Shown here piece after piece: positions 1 to 56,497 of a stretch of 64,000 nt of DNA. The notes under the pieces are model-generated. The model saw only the letters and a list, made by a program, of their open reading frames with translations, made no database searches and had not been told where the DNA came from. The stretch comes from Candidatus Nomurabacteria bacterium (GTDB lineage Bacteria; Patescibacteriota; Minisyncoccia; Phycocordibacterales; UBA9973). The translations under genes and the position numbers were made by a program. The stretch spans positions 51,141-115,140 of the forward strand of contig CALRHR010000001.1 in the NCBI GenBank assembly GCA_943359485.1, in the 5' to 3' direction. The first letter of the stretch is position 1; every line of letters begins with the position of its first letter.

Positions 1-1276
1 TATCAATAACAAAAGCACTGTGCACAAAGTCCCCGAGGGGAAATCTTACGGACCAGTAGAAGTGAGTTTGAGGAAAAGTAAACTTTTTGTAAACCTGTCG
101 AGTCAGATAAATGCTTGGTCAAGTCATGGAGATTCAGTAAAAAAAGCACCGACTGGTTTCAAAATTATTGCGACTTCTAAGGGTGGCAAAGTAATCGAAG
201 CGATGGAAAATACCAAAGAAAAACTTTACGCGGTGCAGTTCCATCCGGAAGTCGAGCAGACAGAAGATGAAAATATTATTTTAAATAATTTTGTAAAGAA
301 AATTTGCGCTTGTAAACAAGACTATTTTAAAAAAGATGCAATAAAAACCATTTGTAAAGAGATAGGCGAGAATACAAAAAATATTTTAGGTGATAAAGGC
401 GTAGCCATCATAGGAGTTTCCGGTGGAGTGGATTCTACGACACTTGCGGCGATACTGACGCCAGTACTAGGTAAACAATTGAAGGCATTCTTGGTAGACA
501 CTGGTGGAATGCGGAAGGGTGAAATAGAAAAAGTTAAAAGTATTGCAAAGAAAGCAAAAATAAATCTGGAAGTGATAAGTAAATACAAAAACAAATTTAT
601 CGAAAATGTGGGAAAAAGCATAAATGCGGAAGAAAAAAGAAAAAATTTTCGTGAGGTTTATGGGGAAGTTTTTAAAGAAGTGGCAAAATTTTACGGAGCG
701 ACGCACATGATCCAAGGCACTCTTGCCACTGATTTGATAGAGTCAGGATCTACGGGAAAATCTGCATTGATCAAAACTCATCACAATGTGGATTTGAAAT
801 TGGGACTCAAAGAAATAATGCCGTTCGCTGACTTTTTTAAATTTGAAGTGCGTGATATAGCGCGGTCATTTGGTTTAGGAGAATTAGTTTCAGGGCGTCA
901 GCCATTTCCTGGACCAGGATTGTATTTACGGGTAGTGGGGGTACCGGTAACCACAGAATTACTGGAGATTGTGCGTGAAGCCGATGACGAAGTAAGAAAA
1001 ATTTTAGAAAAACATAATTTATATAATAAAATTTCACAAACGATAGTAGCTCTTCTCGGCACGAAGACTGTTGGTGTTAAAGGCGACGGGCGAGTTTACG
1101 GATATTCTTTGGTGGTTCGCACAGTAGAGACGGCAGATTTTATGACAGTTAAAGGTTTTTATTTGCCACCTATTGTCTGCGAGGAAATCACCAATACTTT
1201 AGTCAAACATCCAAAAATTGTCCGTGTTCTTTACGACTGGACGACCAAACCCCCAGCCACGACAGAATTTGAATAA
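1..1276 (+). CDS. guaA: GMP synthase (glutamine-hydrolysing), 5'-truncated by window edge
   Basis: The frame is open from base 2, so the start lies off-window. The end of the GATase domain (YAVQFHPE) is followed by the ATP-PPase P-loop SGGVDSTT and a conserved C-terminal domain ending TTEFE. Confidence 0.9.
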   Translation, partial: INNKSTVHKVPEGKSYGPVEVSLRKSKLFVNLSSQINAWSSHGDSVKKAPTGFKIIATSKGGKVIEAMENTKEKLYAVQFHPEVEQTEDENIILNNFVKKICACKQDYFKKDAIKTICKEIGENTKNILGDKGVAIIGVSGGVDSTTLAAILTPVLGKQLKAFLVDTGGMRKGEIEKVKSIAKKAKINLEVISKYKNKFIENVGKSINAEEKRKNFREVYGEVFKEVAKFYGATHMIQGTLATDLIESGSTGKSALIKTHHNVDLKLGLKEIMPFADFFKFEVRDIARSFGLGELVSGRQPFPGPGLYLRVVGVPVTTELLEIVREADDEVRKILEKHNLYNKISQTIVALLGTKTVGVKGDGRVYGYSLVVRTVETADFMTVKGFYLPPIVCEEITNTLVKHPKIVRVLYDWTTKPPATTEFE

Positions 1277-1322
1277 GGTGGTATAATACATTTATGATTA
1301 AGAATATTATTTTATAAATTTT

Positions 1323-2018
1323 ATGGAGAAAAAATCTTTTCAAGAAAATCCTGACAATCACTTTGACACTGAAATGCGTTTGAGGGCATTAGAGGGTGCT
1401 GAAGCAAGCCATAGTGCAAAAATGGCTGATGAAGACCGTTTGGGCGTACCAAGCTACGATGAAAGTATGGTTTCAGATTGGATTAGAAACAGGATAGATA
1501 TACCAAAGGATATGATAGGGGGGAAAGGTGTATTTAAAGTTGAAACAAGTGCACAACCAGAAGGGGATTATGAAAGAGATTTAAAAATACTTCAAGCTCT
1601 TACAAAAGATCAGCTAGACAAACTTTTAGCCACAGTAGAAAATGAAAGCAAGAAAGACAAAGGGCTTTTTTCTAAAGGCGATTTACTAAATGGATATGCA
1701 ATTGATCCTGAAACCTTACAATCTTTACAAACTAGGGACCACCATGGGACGGCGAAAGATCTTGCGCTAAGCATATTGTATAGTATGGATGATGAAAAAA
1801 TTACTGAAAATACAGAAAATTATTTAATGAGAAGAATCATAGCGGGCATGGTTTTTTTTAAGGTGCCTGGTTTTAGAACTCCCATAATAAAATTTAACCC
1901 ATTCGTTTCAGTAAAAACAAACGATAAAGTACCTGAAGACAATGTTAAAAAAATTTCAAACCACCTAAAGCGAGAAAGAAAATTATTGCCCATTACTTCA
2001 GATTTTCAAGTACTTTAG
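1323..2018 (+). CDS. hypothetical protein
   Basis: A 231-aa ORF in an intergenic-free slot. I recognise no motif. Confidence 0.5.
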   Translation: MEKKSFQENPDNHFDTEMRLRALEGAEASHSAKMADEDRLGVPSYDESMVSDWIRNRIDIPKDMIGGKGVFKVETSAQPEGDYERDLKILQALTKDQLDKLLATVENESKKDKGLFSKGDLLNGYAIDPETLQSLQTRDHHGTAKDLALSILYSMDDEKITENTENYLMRRIIAGMVFFKVPGFRTPIIKFNPFVSVKTNDKVPEDNVKKISNHLKRERKLLPITSDFQVL

Positions 2019-2033
2019 GATGTTTTTCTTCCT

Positions 2034-2064
2034 ATCTCTAATTCGCGCGAATAGACGAATAGAT
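2034..2064. promoter_or_regulatory. putative ArsR operator, copy 1 (contains perfect palindrome ATTCGCGCGAAT)
   Basis: ATCTCTAATTCGCGCGAATAGACGAATAGAT lies upstream of the arsR-like gene. A near-identical copy sits at 2372-2402. Confidence 0.5.
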
Positions 2065-2105
2065 ATAGTGTGTTATGTTATATAAAGTTTTGGTATAATA
2101 AAAGA

Positions 2106-2372
2106 ATGAACGAGAAGGAACTCGAAAAAGTTTTAAAAGCGCTTGCTAATAAGCGCCGGGTTGCGATTTTAAAATTTCTCAAGCATACCAAGCAGGCATC
2201 GGTGGGGGAAATCGCAGACGCTATAAAATTGTCTTTCAAAGCAACATCAAAACATCTAATGATTCTTTCAAATACAGATATAGTTGAAAAAGAGCAGAGT
2301 AGTCTCACGATGCTTTATTTTGTACCCAAGACCAATCATCCAATAGTTTCTAAATTATTATCCATTATCTAA
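2106..2372 (+). CDS. ArsR/SmtB-family winged-helix transcriptional regulator
   Basis: LKALANKRRVAILKFL...ASVGEIADAIKLSFKATSKHLMIL is the typical ArsR HTH. TATAAT at 2094-2099 lies 6 nt before the ATG at 2106. Confidence 0.8.
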   Translation: MNEKELEKVLKALANKRRVAILKFLKHTKQASVGEIADAIKLSFKATSKHLMILSNTDIVEKEQSSLTMLYFVPKTNHPIVSKLLSII

Positions 2373-2402
2373 TCTCTAATTCGCACGAATAGGCGAATAG
2401 TT
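2372..2402. promoter_or_regulatory. putative ArsR operator, copy 2
   Basis: ATCTCTAATTCGCACGAATAGGCGAATAGTT is a direct repeat of 2034-2064. It lies immediately upstream of the ATG at 2408. Confidence 0.5.
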
Positions 2403-2407
2403 TAAAT

Positions 2408-3049
2408 ATGCAGGATTTTACTAAAAAAGAAAAAGCTTTATTAAAGAAATTGGATACTCCAGCGAAGGTGCAGGATTTTTTAAATGGAATTCCTTTTAAT
2501 TTTGAAAAAAGGGGAGAGACATTAAAATCCCCATTAATGGTTTTACGAACAAAAAGCGCGCATTGTTTCGAGGGGGCGCTTTTGGGCGCATATATTTTAT
2601 CTCTTCATGGTTTCACTCCATATGTTTTGCATTTAAAAAGTATCAAAGATGACTACGATCATATCATAACGCCATTTAAGATTGAGGGATTGTGGGGCGC
2701 GCTTTCTAAAACCAATCATGCGGTCTTGCGTTATCGCGAGCCAATCTATAAAAATATTCGTGAGCTCGCGATCTCGTATTTTCATGAATATTTTTTAAAT
2801 GATGGAAAGAAAACTTTGAGACAGTACTCCCAACCTTTAAATTTAAATACTTTAAATAAACCCACCCGACCGAACGGTCGTCCGGGCGGGAATTGGGTAA
2901 CTAGTGAAAAAGATTTGTGGTATATAGATAAAAAATTAGATAAAATAAAACACTATGACATCATACCTAAAGCGCACATAAAAAATCTGCGCAAAGCAGA
3001 CAAAATTGAAATCAAGGCAGGGAAGGTGGTAGAATACAAGAAGCCATAA
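2408..3049 (+). CDS. hypothetical protein (possible transglutaminase-like Cys-His-Asp fold)
   Basis: A 213-aa ORF. The segment SAHCFEGALLGAYIL...DYDHIITPF resembles a Cys/His/Asp catalytic arrangement, but the functional call is weak. Confidence 0.4.
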   Translation: MQDFTKKEKALLKKLDTPAKVQDFLNGIPFNFEKRGETLKSPLMVLRTKSAHCFEGALLGAYILSLHGFTPYVLHLKSIKDDYDHIITPFKIEGLWGALSKTNHAVLRYREPIYKNIRELAISYFHEYFLNDGKKTLRQYSQPLNLNTLNKPTRPNGRPGGNWVTSEKDLWYIDKKLDKIKHYDIIPKAHIKNLRKADKIEIKAGKVVEYKKP

Positions 3050-3081
3050 ATTCTTGAGGGCTACAAAAATGAGATGTAATC

Positions 3082-3113
3082 CTTACTTCACTAACGGCCG
3101 TCAGTGTGGTAAG
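3082..3113. promoter_or_regulatory. palindromic hairpin/operator overlapping the -10 of the PaaX-like gene
   Basis: CTTACTTCACTAACGGCCGTCAGTGTGGTAAG is centred on ACGGCCGT. It overlaps TAAGAT (3110-3115), which lies 6 nt before the ATG at 3122. Confidence 0.55.
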
Positions 3114-3121
3114 ATAATCAC

Positions 3122-3697
3122 ATGAGGGGACAAATACTTTTAAAGGCTCTGGAAGTGCTCACAGATTGCGCATTGACTCAAGTTGATTTTATTGAGGCAG
3201 TGCTTGCGAGTGGTTACGGGGCGGGTTTAGGGAAACTTGATTATGAATTTAGAAAAAGGCGAAGTGTAAGAGAGCGGGCAAATCTCAGAGAAGAGTATAA
3301 AACAGAACGCCGAAGGAGATTACAAAATTTTTTATACCAGATGAAACATGACGGATTGCTGGATGCTACTAAAGATAATAAATTGACCGTTTCTATAAAA
3401 GGAAAACAAAAAATAAAGGAACTAAAAAATAAATTACCTGGGCGTTACTACCTTAAAACAAAGACAACACAGATCACCATCATTAGTTTTGATATACCAG
3501 AGAAATTAAGGAGAAAGCGAAACTGGTTACGGGAAGTGATTAGGAATCTTGGGTTTAAAATGATACATCAGAGTGTTTGGATGGGGAAAAACAAAATCCC
3601 TGCAGAATTCATAGAGGATCTTGAGAACTTAAGAATTTTGGAATATGTTGAGATTCTGGAAGCTACTAAGAGCGGAAGTTTGAAGAAATTGGTATAA
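3122..3697 (+). CDS. PaaX-like regulator with Cas2-fold C-terminal domain (paralogue 1)
   Basis: ITIISFDIPEKLRRKRNWLREVIRNLGFKMIHQSVWMG matches the PaaX_C/Cas2-like beta-alpha motif. A paralogue lies at 32676-33221. Confidence 0.6.
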   Translation: MRGQILLKALEVLTDCALTQVDFIEAVLASGYGAGLGKLDYEFRKRRSVRERANLREEYKTERRRRLQNFLYQMKHDGLLDATKDNKLTVSIKGKQKIKELKNKLPGRYYLKTKTTQITIISFDIPEKLRRKRNWLREVIRNLGFKMIHQSVWMGKNKIPAEFIEDLENLRILEYVEILEATKSGSLKKLV

Positions 3698-3698
3698 T

Positions 3699-3730
3699 CT
3701 TACTCTACTAACGGCCGTCAGTTGGGTAAG
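3699..3730. repeat. second copy of the 3082-3113 palindrome, downstream of the gene
   Basis: CTTACTCTACTAACGGCCGTCAGTTGGGTAAG is again followed by TAAGAT. Confidence 0.6.
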
Positions 3731-3966
3731 ATTTGGATAATTGCTAGATTGCTAGATTGCTAGGAGTCTTCTTTTCTTCTTTTTCATGGCAGTATTCTTT
3801 TTGGGTTTTCTGTATTGTTCGTTTTTTTTATTTTCAGTATTTTTAATTATTACGACATTTAAAATGCATCAATATTAGACGATACAGGATGGGGCGGCGA
3901 GAATTGGGGAGATGGTTAATTTTCACAAAAATCTTGCTCTTCTCGGAGCCTTGCTGATGCTTTTGT

Positions 3967-4413
3967 CTATTCCTTTGCCTTGGGTGGTCTCTCTAGCTCT
4001 GCAATAGCTTGATCTAAAAAATCATTTGCTTTTTTTATCTCTTCTGCCGTAATTCTATTTTCCCCTGTCTTTCTATCTTCTCCTGTACGTAATCCTTCTT
4101 CAAATACTTTAAAATTTTCAAAATCAACTAGCAAACTTGCACTTAAATCTATCCTTGATTCTATCGCATGTAAAAAATATCTAACTATCTTCAGAAAAAA
4201 ACTTTTTCTGCATTTATATATAGCAAATTCTGGATTTGTTTTTGGAGTTAATAAGTATTCTGGTATTTCATCAATAAAATCATTACGAAAAATACGAAAT
4301 ATTTCTAAATATCGTTCTTTTGGACTTTCTATATTTTTTGTAGCAAGAAATTTTTGATTTAGCGCTCGTGTTTTAGACGTACCCTCATATGCAGTTGTTT
4401 GTCGAGCTTCCAT
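3967..4413 (-). CDS. hypothetical protein
   Basis: A 148-aa ORF downstream of nrdB. No motif recognised. Confidence 0.45.
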   Translation of the reverse strand: MEARQTTAYEGTSKTRALNQKFLATKNIESPKERYLEIFRIFRNDFIDEIPEYLLTPKTNPEFAIYKCRKSFFLKIVRYFLHAIESRIDLSASLLVDFENFKVFEEGLRTGEDRKTGENRITAEEIKKANDFLDQAIAELERPPKAKE

Positions 4414-4471
4414 TTTTTTATTTTAATACATCCTTAAATGAATATTTTTATAGGAATTTAATTTACTTCTA

Positions 4472-5491
4472 TTATTTTTCTTCTCTTTTTTCTTCCTTTT
4501 TCTTTTCTTCCTTTTTGTGTCCGTGAGCGTCGACTTCGTAAGAAGTGTTTTGTTGTTCGAAAAAGTTTACCAGTTCAAATACATCGGTCGCTGTAGACAT
4601 CCATTTTGCAGGATTAGTAACACCGAAATGTGGTTCAAGTCCTAGTTCTTCCAGCCGGCGGTCGGCCACATACTGTACATATTGGTTCACATAGTCGGCA
4701 TTGAGTCCTAGAATCCCTTTAGGGAACATATCTTTGTTGTAATTATTTTCAAGACTTACTCCTTCAATAATAATATCTCTTATTTCCTTCGCAAATTCTT
4801 CAGTTAGGAGTTCTGGATTTTCTTCAAGAATTGTATGGATGAGCTGAATGCCAAATTTTAAGTGTAGAGATTCATCACGCAAGACCCAATTAATCATTGA
4901 ACCTAGATTGCGAAGCTGATTTCTCTGGCGGAAAGAAAGAGCTACCATAAAACCAGAATAAAACCAGGTGCCTTCCATTACTATGTTAGTGGCGACTAAG
5001 TTCCGCAAGAAATCTTTTTTGCCTTCAGTGGTTTCAATGTTGAGCGTGTCTTCTGTCATTCGGATAAGATATTTATTTACAAAATTTTCTTTTTTTACGA
5101 TCGAATCAATCTCTAAATGCACACCATAGACTCGGTCGCGGTCAAGCGGGAATGTTTCGAGCACATATTCAAAGGCGACACAGTGGTTCGCTTCTTCAAA
5201 CATTTGCTTGGCAATGTAGAGGTGGCATTCAGGAGATTTTAGATAGGGATAAATTCCAAGTGCCAGCGATCTGTTGACGATAAGTTCTGTAGGATTAAAA
5301 AATGCCATCAAAAATTCTACAGTATGTCTTTCATCCTCAGTCATATTTTTCCAGTCGGACAAATCTTCACCTAGTGGGATTTCGTGCGGGAACCAGCTGT
5401 TTCTAACTGCCTGATTGTAAAGGTCGTAAGCCCATTTATAATTCATGGGGTGTAGATTCATGTCTGTTGGGGATGCTTTTCCTAATATCAT
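4472..5491 (-). CDS. nrdB: ribonucleotide reductase class Ia beta subunit (R2)
   Basis: Di-iron ligand motifs are present (EEANHCVAFEYV, RDESLHLKFG). It lies downstream of nrdA. Confidence 0.9.
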   Translation of the reverse strand: MILGKASPTDMNLHPMNYKWAYDLYNQAVRNSWFPHEIPLGEDLSDWKNMTEDERHTVEFLMAFFNPTELIVNRSLALGIYPYLKSPECHLYIAKQMFEEANHCVAFEYVLETFPLDRDRVYGVHLEIDSIVKKENFVNKYLIRMTEDTLNIETTEGKKDFLRNLVATNIVMEGTWFYSGFMVALSFRQRNQLRNLGSMINWVLRDESLHLKFGIQLIHTILEENPELLTEEFAKEIRDIIIEGVSLENNYNKDMFPKGILGLNADYVNQYVQYVADRRLEELGLEPHFGVTNPAKWMSTATDVFELVNFFEQQNTSYEVDAHGHKKEEKKKEEKREEK

Positions 5492-5497
5492 AAAAAT

Positions 5498-5582
5498 TAG
5501 TTTCTAGTTGCTAGGTTCTAGGTTCTAGCAGTTTATTTATTAATCTTTTCTAGTCCCTAGAAGCTAGTCCCTAACACCTAAC
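5498..5582. repeat. TAGG-heptad palindromic element (nrdA-nrdB spacer)
   Basis: The left arm is TTAGTTTCTAGTTGCTAGGTTCTAGGTTCTAGCA and the right arm is TCTAGTCCCTAGAAGCTAGTCCCTAACACCTAA. Together they form an imperfect inverted repeat. Confidence 0.55.
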
Positions 5583-8141
5583 TCATTGGCAACTCTCGCA
5601 CAATAACGCATCCTGCGGGTCTTCAGGCAAGTGTATACGCATTGGTTCTGTGTTTTCTTTTTTGATGTTCTCTGATGCTTCAGGGAGAGATGTTGGTGTT
5701 TCTATATTTTCAATTATTGGGGTTGCTTGTATTGTTTTATCGCGTAATACTGAGAAGCCTTTTTTACCCAAAGCAGTCCCTTTGTTGACTGTCGTTGTGG
5801 ATTGCTCGGCGCTGTGGCGTGGTTTCATGTGGAGATAGTAAGTGGTCTTTAGTCCTTTATCCCACGCGCTCGTATAAACATTCATGATTTCATCGATGTC
5901 GCGAATTTCTAGATACATGTTGCGAGAAATTCCCATATCTACCCATTTTTGTGCACGCGCGGCGACTTCAATGTAGGCATAAGGGGAAACAGAAAAAGAA
6001 GTTTTGTAGATTCTTTTAATATGATCTGGAATTTTCTCAATACTCTCGATGTCTCCGTGATTCTCGAGTATTTGTTCGCGTGTATTTTCCCACAAGTTTT
6101 CTTTTTGCAGAGCTTCCATCATATTTGGATTTACCTCAAGATACTTGCCGGAAATTTTATTTCGGGAAAACATCTGGGTGAACCTCGGGTCGATTCCCGG
6201 AGAAGTCCCTGCCACTAGTCCAATGTTGGCATTCGGCGCGATGGCTAGGAGTGTGGCGTTCCGCATACCTCTTTTTACTTTGGCACGCAGAGTATCCCAG
6301 TCTAAAAGCGGAAGCAATTTTGCTGATTCTTTTTTCACAGTTAATTCGCGTTCGCGATCCACTTCGAGTACTGCTAGAGTGTCTATCGGTACTTGTCCTT
6401 TTGACCAGCCCGAACCCTTAAAATTTTTATAACTTCCTCGTTCTTCTGCTAAATTTGCGGATTCATCTATGGACATGTAAGAGATAAATTCAAAAACTTG
6501 GTCCGCAAAATCTGCAGCCCCTGTGTCTTCATAAGAATAGCCAAGTTGTTCGATCGAATCAGCGAAGCCCATTAGTCCCAAGCCGACGGCGCGGTTTTCG
6601 GAATCTGCGCGAATTGCTTCCGGAATTGGAAGTTTATTAATGTCTACTAAGTTATCAAGCTGGCGAGTGGCTAGACGCACGGATTCTTCTAACCGGTGCC
6701 AGTCAATCTGTCCGTTTACAATATGCCGTGGAAGATTTATTGAAATTAAATTACAAACAGCAATGTTGTCTCCATCTGTCGGTAAAGTAACTTCGGTGCA
6801 AAGGTTGGAACAATGAATAGTGCCAGTGTTGTTATTGAGCGCGCGCATATTTATAGTATCTTTCCAAGTAAGCCACGGATGGGAAGTCGTTTCAAGCGAA
6901 ATTAGGATATTCTTGTATTGCTGGCGAGCTGGCATTACACTGAACATCTTCATTTTTCCCTGTTTTGCCAAAGCTACATATTCATTATATCTCTTAGAAA
7001 ATTCTTTACCCACAAGCTCGTTTAAGTCTTTAACTTCATTGGGGTCGAACAGATACCATTCGTCACTGTTTAAAACACGCTTCATAAACTCATCCGAAAT
7101 AAATACTGCAGTGTTGGCAGTACGAGTTCTCCTGTAGTCGTCTCCGTTGTTTTGTTTTAAATCTAAAAAATCTTGAAAATTTAAATGCCAATTTTCCATA
7201 TAAAAACACAACGCGCCCTTTTTTTTGCCACCTCGTTGGACTGCGCGCACAGCGGAATCAATGATGTGCATGAAAGGAACCGGTCCAGAAGAAATGGTAT
7301 TGTTGGATTTTAGAACTGATCCCTCGGCGCGGAGTTTGGTTACCGCAAGTCCGATACCACCGGTCGCTTTAGATAAAAGCAAAACATCTGAAACAGTTTT
7401 TCCGATATGTTCCATGTTGTCGTGAATTTCCATTAGGAAACAATTGGAAAGTTTTGGATTCGGAGTGCCGGCACCGATGTTGGAACTTCCAGCCGAGAGG
7501 TACTCCAGTTTAGACATCTTGTCGTAAAATTTCTTAGCCCACCCTGTAGCGTCTTTTTCATTCAGCGACATTCCCATAGCGACGCGCATCCAGAAATATT
7601 GTGGCGTTTCGAGTGGAGATTGTTTTTCATTCTTCATCAAGTAGCGATTCTGCATTGTGGAGAGTCCAGAATATTTATACAGTTCATCGTTTTCTATTTT
7701 CAAGTGCGAAGCGAGCACTTCTAGATCAAAAATTGTTACCATTCTTTTATCCAAAAGTCCTTTTTCAACTGCATTTAAGATGTAATTTTTAAAATGAGCA
7801 CTGTGAAGTTTGGCAAATTCTTCTTTTGATATGTTTTTTGACTCGTCGTGATCGTAATCCCCAATGACTTTCTTGTAAATGTCCTTCAAAAGTAGGCGAG
7901 TAGCTATTTTGTCGAAATCTCCGCTGTATTGAGTGTTCTGTAGGGCGGCGTTTATGGTCGCCGCGTCCATTTCTTCGGTAGTAATGCCGTCATATAAGGT
8001 GAGTTGTGTTTCTGATGCTATTTGGATAACTTTACTGATTGGGTCACTCAATCCATAACACGTCCTTTCGATTGATTTGTTGATTCGGTCGGCATTGAAG
8101 GGAACTTTTGTGCCGTCTCTTTTAGTAATTGTGAGTGTCAT
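5583..8141 (-). CDS. nrdA: ribonucleotide reductase class Ia alpha subunit with N-terminal ATP-cone
   Basis: An 852-aa ORF with an ATP-cone (KRDGTKVPFNADRINKSIE), active-site NLCTE and a C-terminal CESCQ tail. TATAAT lies 8 nt upstream of the ATG. Confidence 0.92.
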   Translation of the reverse strand: MTLTITKRDGTKVPFNADRINKSIERTCYGLSDPISKVIQIASETQLTLYDGITTEEMDAATINAALQNTQYSGDFDKIATRLLLKDIYKKVIGDYDHDESKNISKEEFAKLHSAHFKNYILNAVEKGLLDKRMVTIFDLEVLASHLKIENDELYKYSGLSTMQNRYLMKNEKQSPLETPQYFWMRVAMGMSLNEKDATGWAKKFYDKMSKLEYLSAGSSNIGAGTPNPKLSNCFLMEIHDNMEHIGKTVSDVLLLSKATGGIGLAVTKLRAEGSVLKSNNTISSGPVPFMHIIDSAVRAVQRGGKKKGALCFYMENWHLNFQDFLDLKQNNGDDYRRTRTANTAVFISDEFMKRVLNSDEWYLFDPNEVKDLNELVGKEFSKRYNEYVALAKQGKMKMFSVMPARQQYKNILISLETTSHPWLTWKDTINMRALNNNTGTIHCSNLCTEVTLPTDGDNIAVCNLISINLPRHIVNGQIDWHRLEESVRLATRQLDNLVDINKLPIPEAIRADSENRAVGLGLMGFADSIEQLGYSYEDTGAADFADQVFEFISYMSIDESANLAEERGSYKNFKGSGWSKGQVPIDTLAVLEVDRERELTVKKESAKLLPLLDWDTLRAKVKRGMRNATLLAIAPNANIGLVAGTSPGIDPRFTQMFSRNKISGKYLEVNPNMMEALQKENLWENTREQILENHGDIESIEKIPDHIKRIYKTSFSVSPYAYIEVAARAQKWVDMGISRNMYLEIRDIDEIMNVYTSAWDKGLKTTYYLHMKPRHSAEQSTTTVNKGTALGKKGFSVLRDKTIQATPIIENIETPTSLPEASENIKKENTEPMRIHLPEDPQDALLCESCQ

Positions 8142-23910: not shown

Positions 23911-24138
23911 TTGAAAACTATCCCGGTCCTCTTCGGAGGGCTGAGTGTCAGACCCGTTCTGACCGGATTTATTGAGTCGGTATTGTGTCGCTCAATTGAC
24001 GACACAATAGTTTTTGCTCAAACTTAAAATGAGCTAGACTATATGGAAAGACATATAAAATAAAAAAGTTTCAGCCTTCGGGCTGATCCGCCTCTGGCGG
24101 AAAAAAGGAACGAAACAAAACAAAGGACAGTAACAAAA

Positions 24139-28803: not shown

Positions 28804-28960
28804 ATATGAATTATAACACTAATTTATGTATTCCCATTGGCTCGAATTTTTGATACAATATAGTAAAGAATTGTTTTTATCTGTAGCGGGTGGTCGCACT
28901 CACATAGGCACATATGTTGGAGTTTCGCCATCACCCGCTTCAAATGAAAATAATAAAATA

Positions 28961-28992
28961 AAAAATCACAAAATATTTTTTGTGATTTTTTA
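28961..28992. terminator. bidirectional hairpin terminator
   Basis: AAAAAATCACAAAATATTTTTTGTGATTTTTT. Confidence 0.6.
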
Positions 28993-28993
28993 T

Positions 28994-29092
28994 TTTGTAC
29001 ACTTCACTTCGTTCAGTGTCCTCAATTTTGTAATTTGCTACGCAAAAATAAAATTGGTTTGTACATTCACTTCGTTCAGTGTCCTCAATTTT
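28994..29092. repeat. tandem ~64-bp repeat (2 copies)
   Basis: TTTGTACA(C)TTCACTTCGTTCAGTGTCCTCAATTTT occurs at 28994 and 29058. The partial motif CACTTCGTTCA recurs at 29425. Confidence 0.7.
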
Positions 29093-29263
29093 TTAAATTT
29101 TCTTCGAAAATAAAAAATTGGGAGTTATCCACAGTTTTGTGAAAAAAGTATTGTATTTAATTTCTATATGCGGGATAATTAAAGAGTTCCCGCAATAATT
29201 ATTGAAAATATTTTTTCTTTAATTTTAAAAAAATGTTTTCAGGTCGTTTTATTGCAAACTAGA

Positions 29264-32592: not shown

Positions 32593-32630
32593 AAATACCA
32601 GAAAAAGATTTTATTATCATAAAAAAATCT

Positions 32631-32664
32631 ACTACAAAAATACACGGCCGTGTTGTTTTATAGT
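32631..32664. promoter_or_regulatory. palindromic hairpin/operator abutting the -10 of PaaX-like paralogue 2
   Basis: ACTACAAAAATACACGGCCGTGTTGTTTTATAGT is centred on CACGGCCGTG. TATAAT (32664-32669) lies 6 nt before the ATG. Confidence 0.55.
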
Positions 32665-32675
32665 ATAATAGGAAT

Positions 32676-33221
32676 ATGCGTAATAGGATTGATTATAAAA
32701 GAATTATTTTAACGACGGTTGCAACTGCAGGAATTTTAGCGGTGGCGGTTCTTGCACCGAATGTCCTGCAAGTTCTAAAGCCTTTTTTAAAGCAAAAGAA
32801 AAGATATAACCTTAAATACTATTTAAATCAAAAAGCAAAGAAACTTATAAAAAATGGTTTTCTTAAAATAGGCACTGAAGACGGGAAACAATTTTTATCG
32901 CTCACAGAAAAAGGAGAGTCTAAATTGAAATTTTATAAGGTTATAGAAAAAAAGAAAAATATTAAATGGGATGGCAAATGGAGGGTAGTTATTTTTGATG
33001 TATGGGAAAAAGCCAGATCAAAAAGAGATCTTTTACGCATGGAAATTAAAAATTTTGGATTTATCCAGCTCCAGCAAAGTGTATGGATTTATCCTTATCC
33101 GTGCGCAGAATTCATTGAGCTTTTAAAGGCAGATTTATCTTTTGGTAAAAATATTAGATATATGGTTGTGGAAAAATTAGATCACGATGAGAATTTGAAG
33201 AAAAAGTTTGGTTTTGGGTAA
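32676..33221 (+). CDS. PaaX-like regulator with Cas2-fold C-terminal domain (paralogue 2, N-terminal TM helix)
   Basis: WDGKWRVVIFDVWEKARSKRDLLRMEIKNFGFIQLQQSVWIYPYP. Confidence 0.6.
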   Translation: MRNRIDYKRIILTTVATAGILAVAVLAPNVLQVLKPFLKQKKRYNLKYYLNQKAKKLIKNGFLKIGTEDGKQFLSLTEKGESKLKFYKVIEKKKNIKWDGKWRVVIFDVWEKARSKRDLLRMEIKNFGFIQLQQSVWIYPYPCAEFIELLKADLSFGKNIRYMVVEKLDHDENLKKKFGFG

Positions 33222-33233: not shown

Positions 33234-33264
33234 CTACAAAATTACACGACCGTGTAGTTTTGTA
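33234..33264. repeat. second copy of the paralogue-2 palindrome, downstream of the gene
   Basis: CTACAAAATTACACGACCGTGTAGTTTTGTA. Confidence 0.55.
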
Positions 33265-47013: not shown

Positions 47014-47034
47014 TGTCAAAGGCGGGCTTTGACA
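47014..47034. repeat. REP hairpin TGTCAAAGGCGGGCTTTGACA
   Basis: A perfect palindrome that overlaps both the gyrA stop and the last codons of the RAYT ORF. Confidence 0.8.
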
Positions 47035-47642
47035 TCAAAATTCAGTGTTTGCTCTATAAAGTTTTTAGTGTCTCCAAAAGTTTCCAGTAAGAATTCTTTA
47101 CTAACTATTGGCAAGTTTCGGTCTGATGCATAATCATTATAACTACCCCACTGATATTCTTTTGGATGTTTCACTAATCCATCTTTTACTGGATTCATGT
47201 GAATATAAGATGATGTCCACATCAGCTGAGGATCGCCTTTAATAAGTACTGCCTTAAATTTGTCTTGAAAAACATGCCCAACTTTTTTATATTTTTTATT
47301 AATGTATCTAGAATAACTAGTACAAAGTTTTAACATTAATTTTGAAATTGGCATGTCTACAATTTGTTCAATTAGAAAATGGAAGTGGTTTGGCATCAGA
47401 CAAAAAGCATACAAATTAAAAGCCCCTTTTTCCATTTTAGTTATCCTGATTCTAGAGTAGGGTAGGGCAGTTAATTTTTCTTTGTTTAATTCTTCTTCAG
47501 TAAATCCCAAAGACAGTCCCAGTCTAAAGAGGAAAGCTCTATAATCCTGCTCATCGAAAAATATCTTCTCCTTATTATTGCCACGATTATAGATGTGATA
47601 AATACCACCAGGAGCAAATTCTTTAAAGTCTCTATTATTCAT
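47016..47642 (-). mobile_element. REP-associated tyrosine transposase (RAYT, IS200/Y1 transposase family)
   Basis: IYHIYNRGNNKEKIF...FCLMPNHFHFLIE...YIHMNPVKDGLV matches the HUH plus Tyr pattern. REP hairpins flank it. Confidence 0.8.
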
Positions 47643-47655
47643 ACTTGTAAGTATA

Positions 47656-47676
47656 TGTCAAAGGCGGGCTTTGACA
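47656..47676. repeat. REP hairpin copy 2
   Basis: TGTCAAAGGCGGGCTTTGACA. Confidence 0.8.
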
Positions 47677-47731
47677 AGGGGAAGTTATCAACAGGGCATA
47701 TAAAATGTGTCAAAGTGTGCCAAGGGCGATG

Positions 47732-47752
47732 TGTCAAAGGCGGGCTTTGACA
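47732..47752. repeat. REP hairpin copy 3 (degenerate half-copy at 47707-47720)
   Basis: TGTCAAAGGCGGGCTTTGACA. Confidence 0.8.
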
Positions 47753-48325: not shown

Positions 48326-49624
48326 ATGAAAAGCAATTTTCAAATTATAGTTTTAGTTGTCTTTATTGTATTTGCCATTTTCGGCGTTTTGGTTTTTTCT
48401 GGCACTATACCGATAGGTGACAATGGTGAGCCGGGGTCTTTGGGCACAGTTACTTTATGGGGGACAGTCAAAAGCGAGGCGATGATTCCTATTCTCGAAG
48501 AATTCAATCTTGCCAACCCGACTTTTATCTTAAAGTATGTTCAGAAATCTACAGATTCGTTCGACCAAGACCTACTTGAAGCTTTAGCTGAAGGTAGGGG
48601 TCCCGACATTGTTTTCATGACAGATGAATTAGCATTTCACTATAATAATAAAATTTTTACCATTCCATTTGCCAGTTATCCGCTCGCTTCATTCAAAAAT
48701 AATTTCGCTAGTGCTGGAGAAGTTTTTCTGACTTCAAAGGGTATTATGGCTTTTCCTATTTCTATTGATCCGCTTGTGTTGTATTACAATCGTAGTATTT
48801 TAGATGCAAATGGTGTGGTGTATCCCCCAGTCTATTGGGACGAAGTCTCTCTACTTATTCCCACTTTAACCAAAAAAGACGATAGCAACAGAATATCAAA
48901 AAGCACCATAGCGTTGGGGCATTTTTCAAATATAGCTCATGCCAAGGACATTATTTCCACTTTATTTATGCAGGCGGGTAGCTCCATTGTAGCCGAGAAA
49001 AGTGGCATTTTTAGCTCTAGCTTGGATGTACCAGGTAGGCAAGATAACCCTAGTGCAAGTTTGAAATTTTACACTGACTTTGCCGACCCAAACAGCGAGT
49101 CGTATTCCTGGAATAAATCTTTTTCAAACTCCAGAGACAGCTTTTCCAAAGGGGACTTGGCATTTTATATTGGTTACGCGAGCGAGCTTTCATCGCTCAT
49201 AAATAAAAATCCGAATCAAAATTTCGGAGTGGCACCACTTCCACAAAAACGAAATGCTAATTTTAAATTAACCGGAGCTCACATTACTGGTGTTTCTCTT
49301 TTGTCATCTTCCAAGAACTTTTCTACCGCCCTTACTGCGGCGAGTCTCATAGCTACGAGCAACTTCGCTTCCAAATTTGCCACGATTTTTGGGGTAGCCC
49401 CAGCCCGCCGGGATCTGCTTGCCGTCAAAAAGGCGGATGATAGCTTTATGCCGACGGTGTACAATTCCGCGCTCTTCGGAAAGAGCTGGCTCGATCCTTC
49501 CCCCAAAGATACAGATGTTATCTTCCGCCTTATGGTCGATGGAGTTCTTTCCAACAGTATAACTCCGGACAATGCCGTATCCGATGCAGATAGCAGACTT
49601 AACATTTTATTGCTTCAGCCATAG
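48326..49624 (+). CDS. extracellular solute-binding protein (ABC-type, family 1-like), membrane-anchored
   Basis: It has an N-terminal TM helix, then TLWGTVKSE...FDQDLLEALAEGRGPDIVFM typical of sugar-type SBPs. Confidence 0.6.
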   Translation: MKSNFQIIVLVVFIVFAIFGVLVFSGTIPIGDNGEPGSLGTVTLWGTVKSEAMIPILEEFNLANPTFILKYVQKSTDSFDQDLLEALAEGRGPDIVFMTDELAFHYNNKIFTIPFASYPLASFKNNFASAGEVFLTSKGIMAFPISIDPLVLYYNRSILDANGVVYPPVYWDEVSLLIPTLTKKDDSNRISKSTIALGHFSNIAHAKDIISTLFMQAGSSIVAEKSGIFSSSLDVPGRQDNPSASLKFYTDFADPNSESYSWNKSFSNSRDSFSKGDLAFYIGYASELSSLINKNPNQNFGVAPLPQKRNANFKLTGAHITGVSLLSSSKNFSTALTAASLIATSNFASKFATIFGVAPARRDLLAVKKADDSFMPTVYNSALFGKSWLDPSPKDTDVIFRLMVDGVLSNSITPDNAVSDADSRLNILLLQP

Positions 49625-49654
49625 GCTGATCCGCCTTGGGCGGAAAAATCAATC

Positions 49655-51703: not shown

Positions 51704-52090
51704 ATGAAAAATAAATTAATGGTTTTGTCGGGTTTTGTTATGGGTTTGGTTCCGGTCGTGGCGTTAGCGCAGAATACTGGTGGTACTCCTACTGTGTGTA
51801 CTGCGGGTCCTGTGACAACCTTTCAGGGTGCCTTGTGTAAAATTGGGGAGATTATGAATGCAATCATTCCGATTTTGATAACACTGGGTGTACTGTACTT
51901 TGTCTGGGGAGTTATTTCGTATGTTATTGCTGATGATGAAGAGGCAAAGTCAAAGGGACGAGACAGGATAATCTACGGTATTATCGGCTTGGCTGTTATC
52001 ATTTCTGTTTGGGGATTGGTGAAGATTTTGTCAAATACTTTTGGGCTTACAAATGTACAGCAAATTACTTTTCCGACTGTTTCTTACTAA
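51704..52090 (+). CDS. T4SS-pilin-like paralogue 5
   Basis: It has a signal peptide ending VALAQN and YFVWGVISYVIADDEEAKSKGRDRIIYGIIGLAVIISVWGLV. Confidence 0.55.
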   Translation: MKNKLMVLSGFVMGLVPVVALAQNTGGTPTVCTAGPVTTFQGALCKIGEIMNAIIPILITLGVLYFVWGVISYVIADDEEAKSKGRDRIIYGIIGLAVIISVWGLVKILSNTFGLTNVQQITFPTVSY

Positions 52091-52140
52091 TCTATAAAGT
52101 GTCGCACCAAGAATCGTGCGACATGATTTCGTAAAATCAC

Positions 52141-52488
52141 ATGAATTTATTTCTCGGTCTTTTCTCTGCCAGGGTGGCTTATGCGAGCGTTGATACCTTT
52201 ATGAATAGCGTAGGCGAGCTTATCATAAATCCGCTCATCAATTTTCTTTTTGCTCTAGCGGTGGTGTATTTTCTGTATGGCGTGTTTGAATTTCTGTCCA
52301 ATCAGGAAAATGAAGACAAGAGAACAGCCGGCAAGAGCCACATGCTTTGGGGAATTGTCGGCATCACCATCATGATGGGTGTGTGGATCATCTTTGGTCT
52401 TATTCTGGACACTTTTAACTTAAGAGGTGACATAGATGTCAGTTCAGGAGGGGTTATAAATGTGAAGTTGCCACCATACAATCCTTAA
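52141..52488 (+). CDS. T4SS-pilin-like paralogue 6 (divergent)
   Basis: VVYFLYGVFEFLSNQENEDKRTAGKSHMLWGIVGITIMMGVW. Confidence 0.5.
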   Translation: MNLFLGLFSARVAYASVDTFMNSVGELIINPLINFLFALAVVYFLYGVFEFLSNQENEDKRTAGKSHMLWGIVGITIMMGVWIIFGLILDTFNLRGDIDVSSGGVINVKLPPYNP

Positions 52489-52624
52489 TAGAGAATTCAT
52501 CTCAAGAGAATAAATTCAAATTAGAGACATAAAAAGGGCGACTTCGCAAAAGCGAAGTCGCCCTTTTAGGTTCTGGAGTCAGTTTACTTTGCACAGCATA
52601 GATCTTTTGTGGTATACTGCAACT

Positions 52625-52855
52625 ATGAAAAATATCATTCAATTTTCAATCGAAAAAGGGCAGGATGGGTATTACATTGCTACAGCAAATGATTTTGCTA
52701 TTATTACCCAAGCGAAAAATTTAGAAGATTTGTTTGTAAATATTAAAGAAGCCACCGAGCTTCACTTTGAAGAAATTTTAGAAGAAGAAACATCTCTGAG
52801 CCGCAATCCTTCAATTTTTATAAACTACGAAATGCCTATCGCGCTCTATGCCTAA
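52625..52855 (+). CDS. hicB: HicB-like antitoxin
   Basis: MKNIIQFSIEKGQDGYYIATANDF...DLFVNIKEATELHFE is UPF0150/HicB-like. TATACT (52613-52618) lies 6 nt before the ATG. Confidence 0.65.
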   Translation: MKNIIQFSIEKGQDGYYIATANDFAIITQAKNLEDLFVNIKEATELHFEEILEEETSLSRNPSIFINYEMPIALYA

Positions 52856-53090
52856 ATTAAAGCGACTTTCTGGCAAAGAAGTCATAACTTTTTGTGAACA
52901 ACACAATTTTAGTATCAGTAGACAGAAAGGAAGCCATATTAATTTGGTACGAATTGTTTCAGAGAAAAAACAAGTGGTGACCGTGCCAAATCATAAAGAA
53001 ATAGACAGAGGAACATTGCATAATATTTTCAAGAAACTGTCTTCATTCATTCCTGAAGAAGATTTAAGAAAATTTTTCTTTACTGACTAG
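52848..53090 (+). CDS. hicA: HicA mRNA-interferase toxin
   Basis: KLKRLSGKEVITFCEQHNFSISRQKGSHINL is the YcfA/HicA signature. It overlaps hicB by 8 nt. Confidence 0.75.
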   Translation: MPKLKRLSGKEVITFCEQHNFSISRQKGSHINLVRIVSEKKQVVTVPNHKEIDRGTLHNIFKKLSSFIPEEDLRKFFFTD

Positions 53091-53098
53091 GTAAAATC

Positions 53099-53140
53099 AA
53101 AAAGGCGGTCGTTCATCGCTGAACGGGTCCGCCTTTTGTT
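53099..53140. terminator. bidirectional terminator at the left edge of the GC-rich island
   Basis: AAAAGGCGG-(CGTTCA-GCGA-TGAACG)-CCGCCTTTT has T-runs on both strands. Confidence 0.65.
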
Positions 53141-53248
53141 TTGCGCGTGGGGCTCGCACGCGCGATGTTTTCATGAGCCCTCCTTTCTCCGAAGTTGATC
53201 TGCTTCGGGCAGAGACCTTCTTTGCGCTGGTCAGGCGCTCCGAGAGAA

Positions 53249-54253
53249 TTACTCCCGGATGTATACACCTGTGGCTGGGGTTGCCCCCTCGCCACAGAAC
53301 TTCCAGATCCCCGCCATCCCGATGGACGGCGGGGGGGTGGTGCCGAAGGTCTCTGTATGAGATCCTCCGTCCGGGTCAAACACCTTCATGGAGCCCCGAT
53401 CGGGACCCCACTGGCTGTTGATCCGTAGGTTCCGTTCGTAACAGCCATCTGTTCCGAACGGGTAGAGGGTGGGTGTCGGCCCTACCTTCGCGGGCGCCGG
53501 GGCTGTCGAGGCCACCGGCGTGGATGTCCGGCTACCTGCCGGTGAGGGGGGTGCGGGAGGTAACAATCCCCCAAAAAATCCACCCACTGTCTCCCGGATC
53601 TCGGTCCCGACCCGTTGGGCTACTTTGTCGCCGACTACAGCCTTTTTTGCTGTGTCGATAGCCACTGGGCCGATGCCGCGCCCCTCGGATGCCGCCTGAT
53701 CTGCTTCCTCCCACTTCGTCGTGGGGGCGGGAATCGCGGGGACCGTCATTGGCGTCGCCGACTTCGGCCGAGCCATCTCGGCCGATCGTGGCATTTCCCT
53801 TGCCACGAAAAGGGAAATCAACACTATTCCGAAGATGGTGAGCGCTGGCTTCACTCGGCCGTGTGCCGTCATTGCGGCGATCACGACCGAACAAAAAAAC
53901 AGCGCTACCCAAATTAAGATATCCGTACTGGCTGTTGGGTATAGCCATGGGCGTGGTCCCGTGGTGAGAAAGTAGCTGAAGGCGAAGTTATTGCTAACTC
54001 CGACAACAGTAGTTCCCACCATCATGACGAATGTAAGCGTAGAGAACCCGACGATGAATTTCTTCATTCCATCGGAAATTCCGCCGCCGTGTGCCGCCGC
54101 GGGTCGCGAGAGGCCGCCCCAGCCTTGGTGCTGGGCCAGCTTGTAAAGGCCGTACAGCACTCCGCCGACGATAGCGACGGTCCAGGGGTTCCAGCCGAAT
54201 GAGCTCGACACCCAATACACTCCCAGGGCCGCGATTGCAAATTTCCAAAACAT
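53249..54253 (-). CDS. GC-rich polytopic membrane protein A1 (unknown function; Pro-rich linker plus small Cys-containing C-terminal domain)
   Basis: A 334-aa ORF with an ATG preceded by AAGGAAG. Third codon positions are G/C-rich. There are about 5 hydrophobic helices, then PAIPAPTT...PPAPPSPAGSRTSTPVASTAPAPAKVGPTP. Confidence 0.65.
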   Translation of the reverse strand: MFWKFAIAALGVYWVSSSFGWNPWTVAIVGGVLYGLYKLAQHQGWGGLSRPAAAHGGGISDGMKKFIVGFSTLTFVMMVGTTVVGVSNNFAFSYFLTTGPRPWLYPTASTDILIWVALFFCSVVIAAMTAHGRVKPALTIFGIVLISLFVAREMPRSAEMARPKSATPMTVPAIPAPTTKWEEADQAASEGRGIGPVAIDTAKKAVVGDKVAQRVGTEIRETVGGFFGGLLPPAPPSPAGSRTSTPVASTAPAPAKVGPTPTLYPFGTDGCYERNLRINSQWGPDRGSMKVFDPDGGSHTETFGTTPPPSIGMAGIWKFCGEGATPATGVYIRE

Positions 54254-54545
54254 TTCATTTCTTCCTTAACTCCGTCCCCTTGACTGGGCAACATGGAGTT
54301 GGAGCAGACTGATCAGAGTACTACAACCGCTTGCGCGTTTGTCTTACTTTGAATAGTCTGCCCGCTAGGAAGCCGGATTTTTTCTCTCCTCTCCTTACCC
54401 CCTCCGCTTTCAGCACCTCCCCCTAAATAGGGGGAGGCCGGGTAGGGGTACAAAGGGGTGAGGGTTCAGCTACATGGCGGGCAAACCATTCATTTTGCTC
54501 GAAATTCTACTTACTTCTTATTTAATTTTCGAAGGTCAGCTTTAC
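54254..54545 (-). promoter_or_regulatory. ~290-nt structured 5' leader of cassette 1
   Basis: A 13-bp long-range stem (54351-54363 with 54479-54491) encloses a GC-rich variable domain. A GCAA-tetraloop hairpin lies at 54328-54337. Confidence 0.55.
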
Positions 54546-54551
54546 CTATGT

Positions 54552-54580
54552 ATTGTATCACACTTATGACAAAAAGTCAA
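54552..54580 (-). promoter_or_regulatory. promoter of cassette 1 (TTGACT-N17-TACAAT on minus strand)
   Basis: The -35 lies at 54575-54580 and the -10 at 54552-54557. The sequence is identical to cassette 2. Confidence 0.7.
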
Positions 54581-54626
54581 GCCCTTTGGGCTGAATTTGT
54601 CCTTATTTTGTAAGGTTAAAATGATA

Positions 54627-54658
54627 AAAGGGCCGCCTCAGTGAAGAGACAGCCCTTT
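54627..54658 (-). terminator. terminator of cassette 2
   Basis: On the minus strand, AAAGGGCTG...CGGCCCTTT is followed by TATCATTTT. Confidence 0.55.
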
Positions 54659-54783
54659 GTTTTGCGCTGGGCCTGTGCGCGATTTGGGCCCTGGGTTGAC
54701 GAGTCCCCGTTGCGTCACTCTGGTTTGTTCCCTCCAGACGGGAGACCTCTATTTTGTAAGCGCTGGTCAGGTGCTTTGTCTTT

Positions 54784-56153: not shown

Positions 56154-56462
56154 TATCTTTCTCCTAATCAAATTTTTTCTCGAGCACACGATTCAGAATA
56201 CTACAACCACTTGCGTGTTTGTCGTTTCCTGAATAGTCTGCCCATCAATGAGCCGATGCATTTCCTCTCCCTGCGAAGGGGGAGATTTGAGAGGGGGTCT
56301 CAAGAATTACCACCCCTAGCCCCTCCTTAATCAAGGAGGGGAGGAAACATAAAATACTCAGCTTCTTAACGGGCAAACCATTCATTTCCCCGCCAGTCTG
56401 GCCGGGGTAAATTGCTCGAAATTCTACTTACTTCTTATTTAATTTTCGAGTAACAGCTTTAC
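56154..56462 (-). promoter_or_regulatory. ~310-nt structured 5' leader of cassette 2
   Basis: It has the same architecture as 54254-54545. The stem joins 56231-56243 with 56371-56383, and the GCAA hairpin lies at 56208-56217. There is an extra 24-nt hairpin insert. Confidence 0.55.
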
Positions 56463-56468
56463 CTATGT

Positions 56469-56497
56469 ATTGTATCACACTTATGACAAAAAGTCAA
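56469..56497 (-). promoter_or_regulatory. promoter of cassette 2 (TTGACT-N17-TACAAT on minus strand)
   Basis: The -35 lies at 56492-56497 and the -10 at 56469-56474. Confidence 0.7.

Follow-up and report, generated by a model that had tools for sequence, protein, structure and literature searches.

A 64,000-nucleotide stretch of the Candidatus Nomurabacteria contig CALRHR010000001.1 (hereafter the window) contains a small gene bracketed by two copies of one palindrome, and the gene encodes a short relative of the repressor PaaX with a Cas2-type fold, referred to here as mini-PaaX. We propose, giving the proposal about an even chance, that gene and palindromes together form a self-repressing, low-copy and mostly vertically inherited duplicative module, resembling the REP/RAYT systems (repetitive extragenic palindromes with their associated tyrosine transposases) but with a Cas2-fold protein. 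The first-pass annotation of the window had offered two alternatives, namely an autoregulated unit whose operator and terminator are made of the same site, or a tiny self-contained mobile or duplicative module. The reading presented here, which we think could as well be right as wrong, joins both, as a self-repressing unit that would end in its own putative sites and a duplicative element of low frequency.

The bracketing of the 191-aa gene (module 1, Table 1), which the first-pass annotation had pointed out, was recovered by a repeat search (family D18), with 30 of 34 positions identical between the upstream and the downstream copy. Both are imperfect palindromes with 13-14 of 16 Watson-Crick pairs each, and in its extended form the downstream one (3696-3733) covers part of the stop codon. 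In the 64 kb there are exactly two occurrences of the central 16-mer ACTAACGGCCGTCAGT; with up to three mismatches allowed, 0.16 occurrences are expected by chance, and the observed count was reached in none of 100 shuffles. Solitary copies of this palindrome are absent from the window. The downstream copy is probably a second binding site as well as the other end of the module. Eight nucleotides past it begins an 8-nt tandem repeat (ATTGCTAG, three times, 3740-3763), within a 234-nt stretch that holds no convincing open reading frame (ORF).

A tblastn search of the window with the module 1 protein yields one paralog (33% identity over 128 aligned columns), also placed between two palindromes (module 2). 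Their core is that of module 1 (ACGRCCGT), whereas the arms differ.

Table 1. Features of the two mini-PaaX modules (positions are those of the window).
Feature	Module	Position	Strand	Description
Upstream palindrome	1	3082-3115	.	34 nt, imperfect dyad, CTTACTTCACTAACGGCCGTCAGTGTGGTAAGAT; putative operator
Core of the upstream palindrome	1	3094-3101	.	ACGGCCGT; outer half-sites CTTAC / GTAAG
Extended -10-like element	1	3107-3115	+	TGGTAAGAT; within the right arm of the upstream palindrome
mini-PaaX gene	1	3122-3697	+	191 aa; helical, winged-helix-like N-terminal part, C-terminal Cas2 fold (PaaX_M), no PaaX_C
Downstream palindrome	1	3699-3732	.	34 nt, CTTACTCTACTAACGGCCGTCAGTTGGGTAAGAT; begins 1 nt past the stop codon
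Upstream palindrome	2	32630-32665	.	TACTACAAAAATACACGGCCGTGTTGTTTTATAGTA; right end overlaps -10 TATAAT (32664-32669), 6 nt before the ATG
Paralogous mini-PaaX gene	2	32676-33221	+	181 aa; PaaX_M E = 1.8e-20
Downstream palindrome	2	33235-33264	.	TACAAAATTACACGACCGTGTAGTTTTGTA; 13 nt past the stop codon

The same arrangement is found across the family. Sixty-five loci were retrieved by protein similarity from contigs of one genome per species, nearly all of them with a palindrome a short way before the start codon and another a short way past the stop codon, and bracketing was scored automatically as a CG[AG][CT]CG centre with at least 11 of 18 pairs. Out of 59 genes ascertained by their protein, from diverse Patescibacteria, 42 have a palindrome on both sides, 13 on one side and 4 on neither, and several of the automated misses are discernible by eye, with degenerate or CGTACG cores. 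In the reverse direction, 82 of the 88 long CGNNCG-centred palindromes in 520 kb of loci plus the window adjoin a mini-PaaX gene; among the other six, two are additional copies of a cognate site and four are palindromes of other kinds, including at least three ordinary A-tract/stem/T-tract terminators. Across the family the palindrome core is CGRYCG (CGGCCG, CGATCG, CGACCG), the arms match within a locus and differ between loci, and several genomes carry two or three paralogs, each with its own palindrome type. Distant members have perfect palindromes of 40-48 bp.

Some loci show additional contents. At L021 (3799-4503) a third palindrome (4462-4503) and the downstream copy of the gene bracket a convergent 150-aa ORF, in which a LexA-like N-terminal helix-turn-helix and a GIY-YIG-like segment are recognised by eye, the layout being palindrome-gene-palindrome-gene-palindrome. 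The bracket of L054 (3800-4873) holds the mini-PaaX gene together with tRNA-Leu and tRNA-Lys, and in the related L050 the downstream palindrome lies directly 3' of the gene. Several family loci are flanked by tRNA genes.

Orthologous loci were found in three states, i.e. empty, with a solo palindrome, and as palindrome-gene-palindrome, which indicates that the unit is gained as a block. At the tkt/pfkB junction, locus L017 is occupied (tktC > palindrome-gene-palindrome < pfkB), L107 carries a solo copy (tktC > palindrome < pfkB; flanking proteins 69-82% identical), and both gene and palindrome are missing from eight further relatives (tktC 81-86% identical to the one in L017), tktC and pfkB even overlapping in three of these eight. 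L017 and L107 differ by an indel of 623 bp, made up of the gene and exactly one palindrome. A two-protein neighbour-joining tree, weak and thin as it is, does not place L017 and L107 as sisters, which points to separate insertion events or, at the minimum, to insertion where the site had been empty ancestrally, and disfavours, with the weight that such a tree can bear, a single shared insertion at tkt-pfkB followed by loss of the gene.

Two more junctions show the same kind of difference. The one between the 213-aa gene of the window and the convergent nrdB is empty in L143 (guaA-213-aa homolog > < nrdB-nrdA; identity to the window 71% for guaA, 63% for the 213-aa protein and 85% for NrdB), whose 194-nt spacer lacks a mini-PaaX gene as well as any such palindrome; L142 resembles it. 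The spacer of L142 between nrdB and the 213-aa homolog (4140-4265) carries another palindrome, CCCCCACTTGGACAC(CGAG/TCGG)TGTCCAAGT, in two copies spaced by about 70 nt. The site after a gene designated 'gene A' has a solo palindrome in L102 and is occupied in L008 and L131. Since a 36-bp cognate dyad is unable to evolve in place, these states argue that the 3' ends of genes receive copied palindromes, alone or together with the mini-PaaX gene. The earlier suggestion of a mobile or duplicative module is thus sustained by the occupied, solo and empty states, but the qualifier 'self-contained' has to be dropped, given the solitary palindromes at the 3' ends of other genes.

These solitary copies emerged from a scan of a metagenome collection with the palindrome consensus alone (TTACYNNACTNACGRYCGTNANTNNRGTAA), which yielded 66 stretches. 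Forty of the sites border a homolog of the gene, about 25 are without one in their vicinity, and the rest lie at contig ends. The solitary copies are near-perfect dyads, and their context (about 25 sites) is convergent in 12 cases, tandem in 6 (mostly near the stop codon of the upstream gene) and divergent in 1, with 1 more inside an ORF. Almost all of them are found at 2-14 nt from a stop codon. The gap between the stop codons of several convergent pairs measures 44-52 nt and is filled entirely by the solitary copy. Neighbouring genes include rplU/recR, thyA-folA, pyrG, pyrF, tkt/pfkB and trmD, and one contig (L093/L102) carries a gene with its two sites plus a solitary site of the same half-site type. 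According to the first-pass annotation, palindromes widespread without the gene would be generic terminators; copies without the gene do occur, about 25 of them, but they are sequence-specific cognate sites rather than generic terminators.

It should be noted that mini-PaaX genes and solitary palindromes often adjoin genes of nucleotide metabolism, i.e. guaA, nrdAB, thyA-folA, dCMP/dCTP deaminase, pyrG, pyrF and NUDIX, as seen in the window (1-8141) and in L055, L061, L083, L087, L096 and L071. This neighbourhood may reflect a functional link or the mere content of a small genome.

Concerning expression, a Shine-Dalgarno-like motif is present in 5 of the 46 long ORFs of the window, and a -10 element of TGnTAnnnT type precedes the ATG of most genes by 6-9 nt. 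With so few Shine-Dalgarno motifs and a -10 element so near the start codon, leaderless mRNAs seem to be the rule in this organism, and from its start region the module 1 mRNA is probably leaderless too. In the upstream copy TAAGAT (3110-3115) follows TGG, as in an extended -10, and lies 6 nt before the ATG, in agreement with the overlap of palindrome and -10 that had been described before; the identical TGGTAAGAT is used by one other gene of the window. The second TAAGAT, reported earlier in the downstream copy with no ORF behind it, is there as well (3727-3732), with the TG out of register and no ATG after it. Within the family this downstream TAAGAT is one of the exceptions, as a -10-like ending (TAAACT or TAAGAT) characterizes 30 of 35 upstream copies versus 4 of 36 downstream copies, which otherwise end with TAAACA or TAAGAA, the symmetric form. 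The downstream copies are also the better palindromes family-wide (Wilcoxon p = 0.004), and in most close orthologs the dyad centre of the upstream copy is 24-27 nt from the ATG.

As the -10 element lies within the upstream palindrome, a bound dimer would occlude it and repress its own gene, and negative autoregulation of the mini-PaaX gene through the upstream copy is likely by analogy with PaaX. Regarding the autoregulated unit of the first-pass annotation, the operator part is hence backed by the -10 in the upstream copy, by its uneven distribution between the two copies and by PaaX, whereas the terminator part does not hold in the canonical sense, T-tracts not being enriched next to these palindromes. 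A canonical intrinsic terminator was considered and rejected: a terminator scan finds nothing at either module 1 copy, and neither T-tracts nor A-T asymmetry are enriched beside 62 distinct Nomurabacteria-type sites. Canonical A-tract/stem/T-tract terminators are present elsewhere in the window.

The two copies of a locus are nearly always identical at dyad positions 1-4 (core) and 12-16 (outer arm), and often differ at positions 5-11. The outer half-site co-diverges with a helix motif of the protein located just before the wing. Helix NFLYQMKHDG, the type to which module 1 of the window belongs, goes with CTTAC...GTAAG, [VIL]FISKMKHDG with TTTAC...GTAAA, KFI[SY]KMK[QR]DG with GTCTAC, and IYISKMKQDG with GTATAC. 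The PaaX of E. coli recognises TGATTC-N27-GAATCA, a 39-bp palindrome, and acts as an autorepressor by occluding its own promoter (PMC9493321), so that a dyad of 34-36 bp whose half-sites are about 29 bp apart is in keeping with the PaaX lineage. We infer that the conserved dimer of Cas2-like domains lies opposite the invariant core, and that the variable helix reads the arms.

The protein itself was described in the first-pass annotation as of PaaX/Cas2 type. Pfam PaaX_M (PF20803) matches the module 1 protein with E = 4.1e-12 (46.5 bits, cut-off 24) and the module 2 protein with 73.2 bits, and it is precomputed for nearly all of 112 homologs, while CRISPR_Cas2 reaches 21.3 bits with module 1, just under its 23.8-bit cut-off. 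Cas2 hallmarks are a conserved Asp ending beta-1 and a QSVW strand. Pfam finds no PaaX_C in the module 1 protein, whose chain stops about 70 residues past the point where the Cas2-like domain begins, and neither Y1_Tnp nor any other recognised transposase domain in mini-PaaX, the fold being Cas2/PaaX; a sequence search of the PDB with the family profile gave weak matches only (E >= 0.4). Residues D124, E127 and D166 are invariant. Homologs occur in Nomurabacteria, Paceibacterota and other Patescibacteria, with 3,942 representatives at 50% clustering for E <= 1e-3 and 637 for E <= 1e-30, all of about 185-210 aa. In the literature on PaaX with Cas2-like, with the candidate phyla radiation (CPR) or Patescibacteria, or on palindromes with a transcription factor, no description of the mini-PaaX family was found. 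One homolog (P0007) is named 'CRISPR-associated endonuclease Cas2' by NCBI, probably a misannotation, and another 'PadR family transcriptional regulator' by JGI.

In the mechanism that we propose, mini-PaaX would be a site-specific DNA-binding protein of the PaaX lineage with a winged-helix-like N-terminus and a Cas2-fold dimerisation domain. The predicted dimer would bind the 34-36-bp bipartite palindrome, its variable recognition helix reading the outer half-sites (CTTAC...GTAAG in module 1) and a conserved part of the protein the family-invariant CGRYCG core. On the upstream copy the dimer would shut off the extended -10 promoter, which would result in negative autoregulation, while the downstream copy would serve as a second, more perfect site marking the other end of the unit. 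Unit and solitary palindromes would be inserted at the 3' ends of genes, mostly between convergent ones, and would then be inherited vertically for long, new copies diverging to private specificities. Candidates for the insertion catalyst are the mini-PaaX protein itself (D124, E127, D166) or host recombination at the palindromes.

Several points weigh against this scheme. Binding, dimer geometry and autorepression are predicted from sequence; residues 1-40 of the module 1 protein have a pLDDT of 46-70 in the predicted structure, and none of the Pfam winged-helix (wHTH) families matches this protein. About 15 Nomurabacteria loci share the synteny pheST-gyrB-[gene]-thrS(-)-rpmF-nusB-rnc, which means that the gene is stably inherited there, and the module as a whole is inherited mostly vertically. 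Relatives are absent from IMG/VR, from the INPHARED phages and from the PLSDB plasmids, and no recent transposition was seen: near-identical copies in different contexts are lacking, and the flanks of bracketing and solitary copies, when inspected, showed no obvious target-site duplications. Solitary copies, ascertained for the Nomurabacteria-type palindrome only, amount by estimate to about one per gene, a very low copy number, with none in the window. Block-wise presence and absence could also arise from ordinary gene flux (transformation, or homologous recombination in the flanks), and to our knowledge neither transposase nor recombinase chemistry has been established for the Cas2 fold.

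A purely regulatory reading, which we regard as possible, if rather doubtful, is the main rival. According to it, mini-PaaX would be an autorepressor with a promoter operator and an auxiliary high-affinity 3' operator (looping or roadblock insulation), the solitary sites would form either a small regulon or bidirectional terminators reinforced by the protein, at the 3' ends of genes of which many belong to nucleotide metabolism, and presence or absence would be ordinary gene gain and loss without mobility. Homology to PaaX, itself an autorepressor with a 39-bp palindromic operator, the promoter inside the upstream copy, the better symmetry of the downstream copies and the synteny kept across about 15 genomes are all as it predicts, and it can add that a solitary palindrome is the sole possible 3' element in convergent gaps of 44-52 nt and that the neighbours are often guaA, nrdAB, thyA-folA, dcd, pyrG, pyrF and NUDIX genes. 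However, the distances between upstream and downstream centres (600-811 bp) show no helical phasing (no 10-11-bp periodicity, Rayleigh p ~0.8), which is not decisive, and the solitary sites lie at 3' ends and not at promoters (1 of 25 divergent) and lack a T-tract. A near-perfect 36-bp cognate palindrome at a site empty in 8 of 10 relatives must, moreover, be copied in. The regulatory reading explains the anatomy, not the palindromes copied into otherwise empty sites.

A further claim, which we consider unlikely, assigns the movement to the protein itself: a class of minimal mobile elements in Patescibacteria, not recognised before, whose Cas2-fold protein would itself recognise and mobilise the palindromes around its gene as well as their solitary derivatives, targeted by its winged helix, without HUH, DDE or tyrosine/serine recombinase. 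D124, E127 and D166 are candidate catalytic residues for it, and nuclease activity has been reported for some Cas2 proteins, some Cas2/VapD proteins being RNases.

The palindromes could also act as nucleic-acid hairpins, either as RNA 3' stem-loops (terminating or stabilising) or as DNA cruciforms, the protein binding or cleaving the RNA hairpin or being incidental; as a full explanation we hold this to be improbable. All four palindromes of the window outfold shuffled sequences (z from -2.6 to -4.7; for the module 1 copies -12.0 and -13.8 kcal/mol, z = -2.9 and -3.0), as hairpins should. Within loci there are 20 compensatory double changes versus 0-6 in slid controls, which, together with the perfect 40-48-bp palindromes of distant members, indicates some selection on dyad symmetry itself; palindrome function may therefore have a hairpin or cruciform component. 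The sites also abut stop codons, and the RNase activity of some Cas2/VapD relatives would suit RNA cleavage. Nevertheless, positions left free by the search pattern pair in 39-48% of the 62 sites, and mismatches show no RNA-strand bias (56 G-T versus 66 A-C). There is no U-tract, and Rfam gives no match over 2500-4600 (E <= 1). In addition, the upstream copy precedes the inferred transcription start, hence lies outside the gene's own mRNA, and the arms co-diverge with a protein helix.

It is very unlikely that the module is a CRISPR- or casposon-like product, in which a gene-sized insert would enter at one palindromic repeat by staggered attack on its two borders and the repeat would be duplicated, as by Cas1-Cas2. 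The indel of gene plus exactly one palindrome is of the expected form, and the 34-48-bp length and partial palindromy resemble CRISPR repeats, as the fold resembles Cas2; recombination between direct repeats gives the same indel, though, no cas1 or other conserved partner lies near more than 100 loci, and CRISPR_Cas2 stays under its cut-off. No arrays accompany the gene, and the remark of the first-pass annotation that the 64 kb contain no CRISPR array agrees with the lack of any evenly spaced repeat family in the window. A fused toxin-antitoxin or defence gene (VapD/Cas2-like nuclease toxin plus autoregulating wHTH), to which the Cas2/VapD homology, PADLOC matches to Cas2 models only and the apparently tight autoregulation would correspond, hardly deserves credence in view of a single, vertically inherited gene beside gyrB or nrdB, absent from phages and plasmids, with no defence model beyond weak Cas2 and with downstream and solitary palindromes left unexplained.

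Among known systems, the closest homolog, and the closest one characterised, is PaaX, the phenylacetyl-CoA-responsive repressor of E. coli and Pseudomonas (PDB 8a39, 3l09). PaaX has about 305-316 aa and mini-PaaX about 190 aa; having no PaaX_C, the latter has no evident acyl-CoA sensor, and it is unlinked to paa genes, its neighbours being guaA, nrdAB, gyrB and thrS. The 34-36-bp palindrome containing the -10 is geometrically like TGATTC-N27-GAATCA, with binding predicted, but it differs by the conserved CGRYCG core, the downstream copy, the solitary 3'-end copies and the block-wise gain and loss.

The closest architecture is that of REP/RAYT, where a single-copy, mostly vertical gene is likewise bracketed by cognate palindromes, with extra palindromes that are extragenic, at 3' ends and between convergent genes, and of an own type per paralog. 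In contrast, mini-PaaX is not an HUH/Y1 transposase, it has about one solitary palindrome per gene instead of tens to hundreds, and its upstream palindrome doubles as promoter and putative operator. The window also contains a RAYT-type IS200-like gene (47015-47642, minus strand, 208 aa, Pfam Y1_Tnp 4.7e-12) that a 21-nt palindrome, TGTCAAAGGCGGGCTTTGACA, brackets in three identical copies (47014-47034, overlapping the stop codon, 47656-47676 and 47732-47752); no further copies exist in the 64 kb. The region 47014-47752 is a textbook REP/RAYT layout with a very low REP number. A RAYT-like ORF (YHIYNRGN...MPNHFH) is found in L012 (5424-6101), a Nomurabacteria-type locus, between the mini-PaaX gene and thrS.

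With IS200/IS605 elements the modules share a unit of about 0.62-0.70 kb with one small gene, a product with a dimeric ferredoxin-like fold, hairpin-capable palindromes at both ends and the lack of an obvious target duplication; insertion polymorphism among orthologous loci, an insertion-sequence trait, is present. Unlike them, mini-PaaX has no HUH motif or catalytic-Tyr helix, multicopy identical elements are not found, synteny is long kept, and the ends are full CGRYCG-centred dyads nearly identical to each other. Tus-TerB and RTP-TerI are comparable in that the gene lies directly beside its own site, which overlaps the promoter (autoregulation, predicted for mini-PaaX), with a handful of sites elsewhere. 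Ter sites, however, are polar and clustered in the terminus, whereas those of mini-PaaX are symmetric, on both sides of the gene and at stop codons, with several paralogous specificities per genome; GC skew and composition reveal nothing at either module that would mark a replication landmark. Cas2, finally, apparently shares the fold and also goes with a partially palindromic repeat (about 30-40 bp) that flanks an insert on either side, but mini-PaaX falls under the Cas2 family cut-offs and carries a fused N-terminal domain of putative DNA-binding type. No cas1, array or leader accompanies it, and the recurrent neighbours of the 65 loci are housekeeping genes only.

Other features of the window deserve mention. 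A G+C-rich island at about 52000-58000 (0.49-0.52 versus about 0.37) has genes with Shine-Dalgarno motifs, unlike the rest of the window, as well as direct repeats at 54302-54583 and 56182-56500, and was probably acquired horizontally. The repeat search also found the small hairpin GGCTGATCCGCCTNNGGCGGAAAAA in three copies (24081-24105, 49624-49648 and 59686-59710), which may be a conserved hairpin element. Just upstream of secA lie two 34-nt direct repeats, 94% identical and 63 nt apart (29003-29036, 29066-29099), adjoined by a 42-nt A/T palindrome (28955-28996).

In bacteria of the candidate phyla radiation, regulators and mobile DNA have hardly been explored. Since each member of the mini-PaaX family carries its probable binding site alongside, in natural specificity variants, a recognition code for the PaaX-type winged helix could be read from it. 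That downstream and solitary copies sit at stop codons points to a 3'-end function, e.g. as roadblock or insulation, and we know of no established bacterial precedent for a protein dedicated to such a role. Database labels such as 'CRISPR-associated endonuclease Cas2' are misleading for these genes. The block-wise gain of gene and palindromes points to a REP/RAYT-like relationship on a Cas2 fold, and if the protein catalyses the movement, this would be a new kind of mobile element with a bearing on the origin of Cas2. In that case mini-PaaX would be a free-living relative of the Cas2 lineage tied to repeat duplication, and thus relevant to the origin of CRISPR repeats and of the adaptation module.

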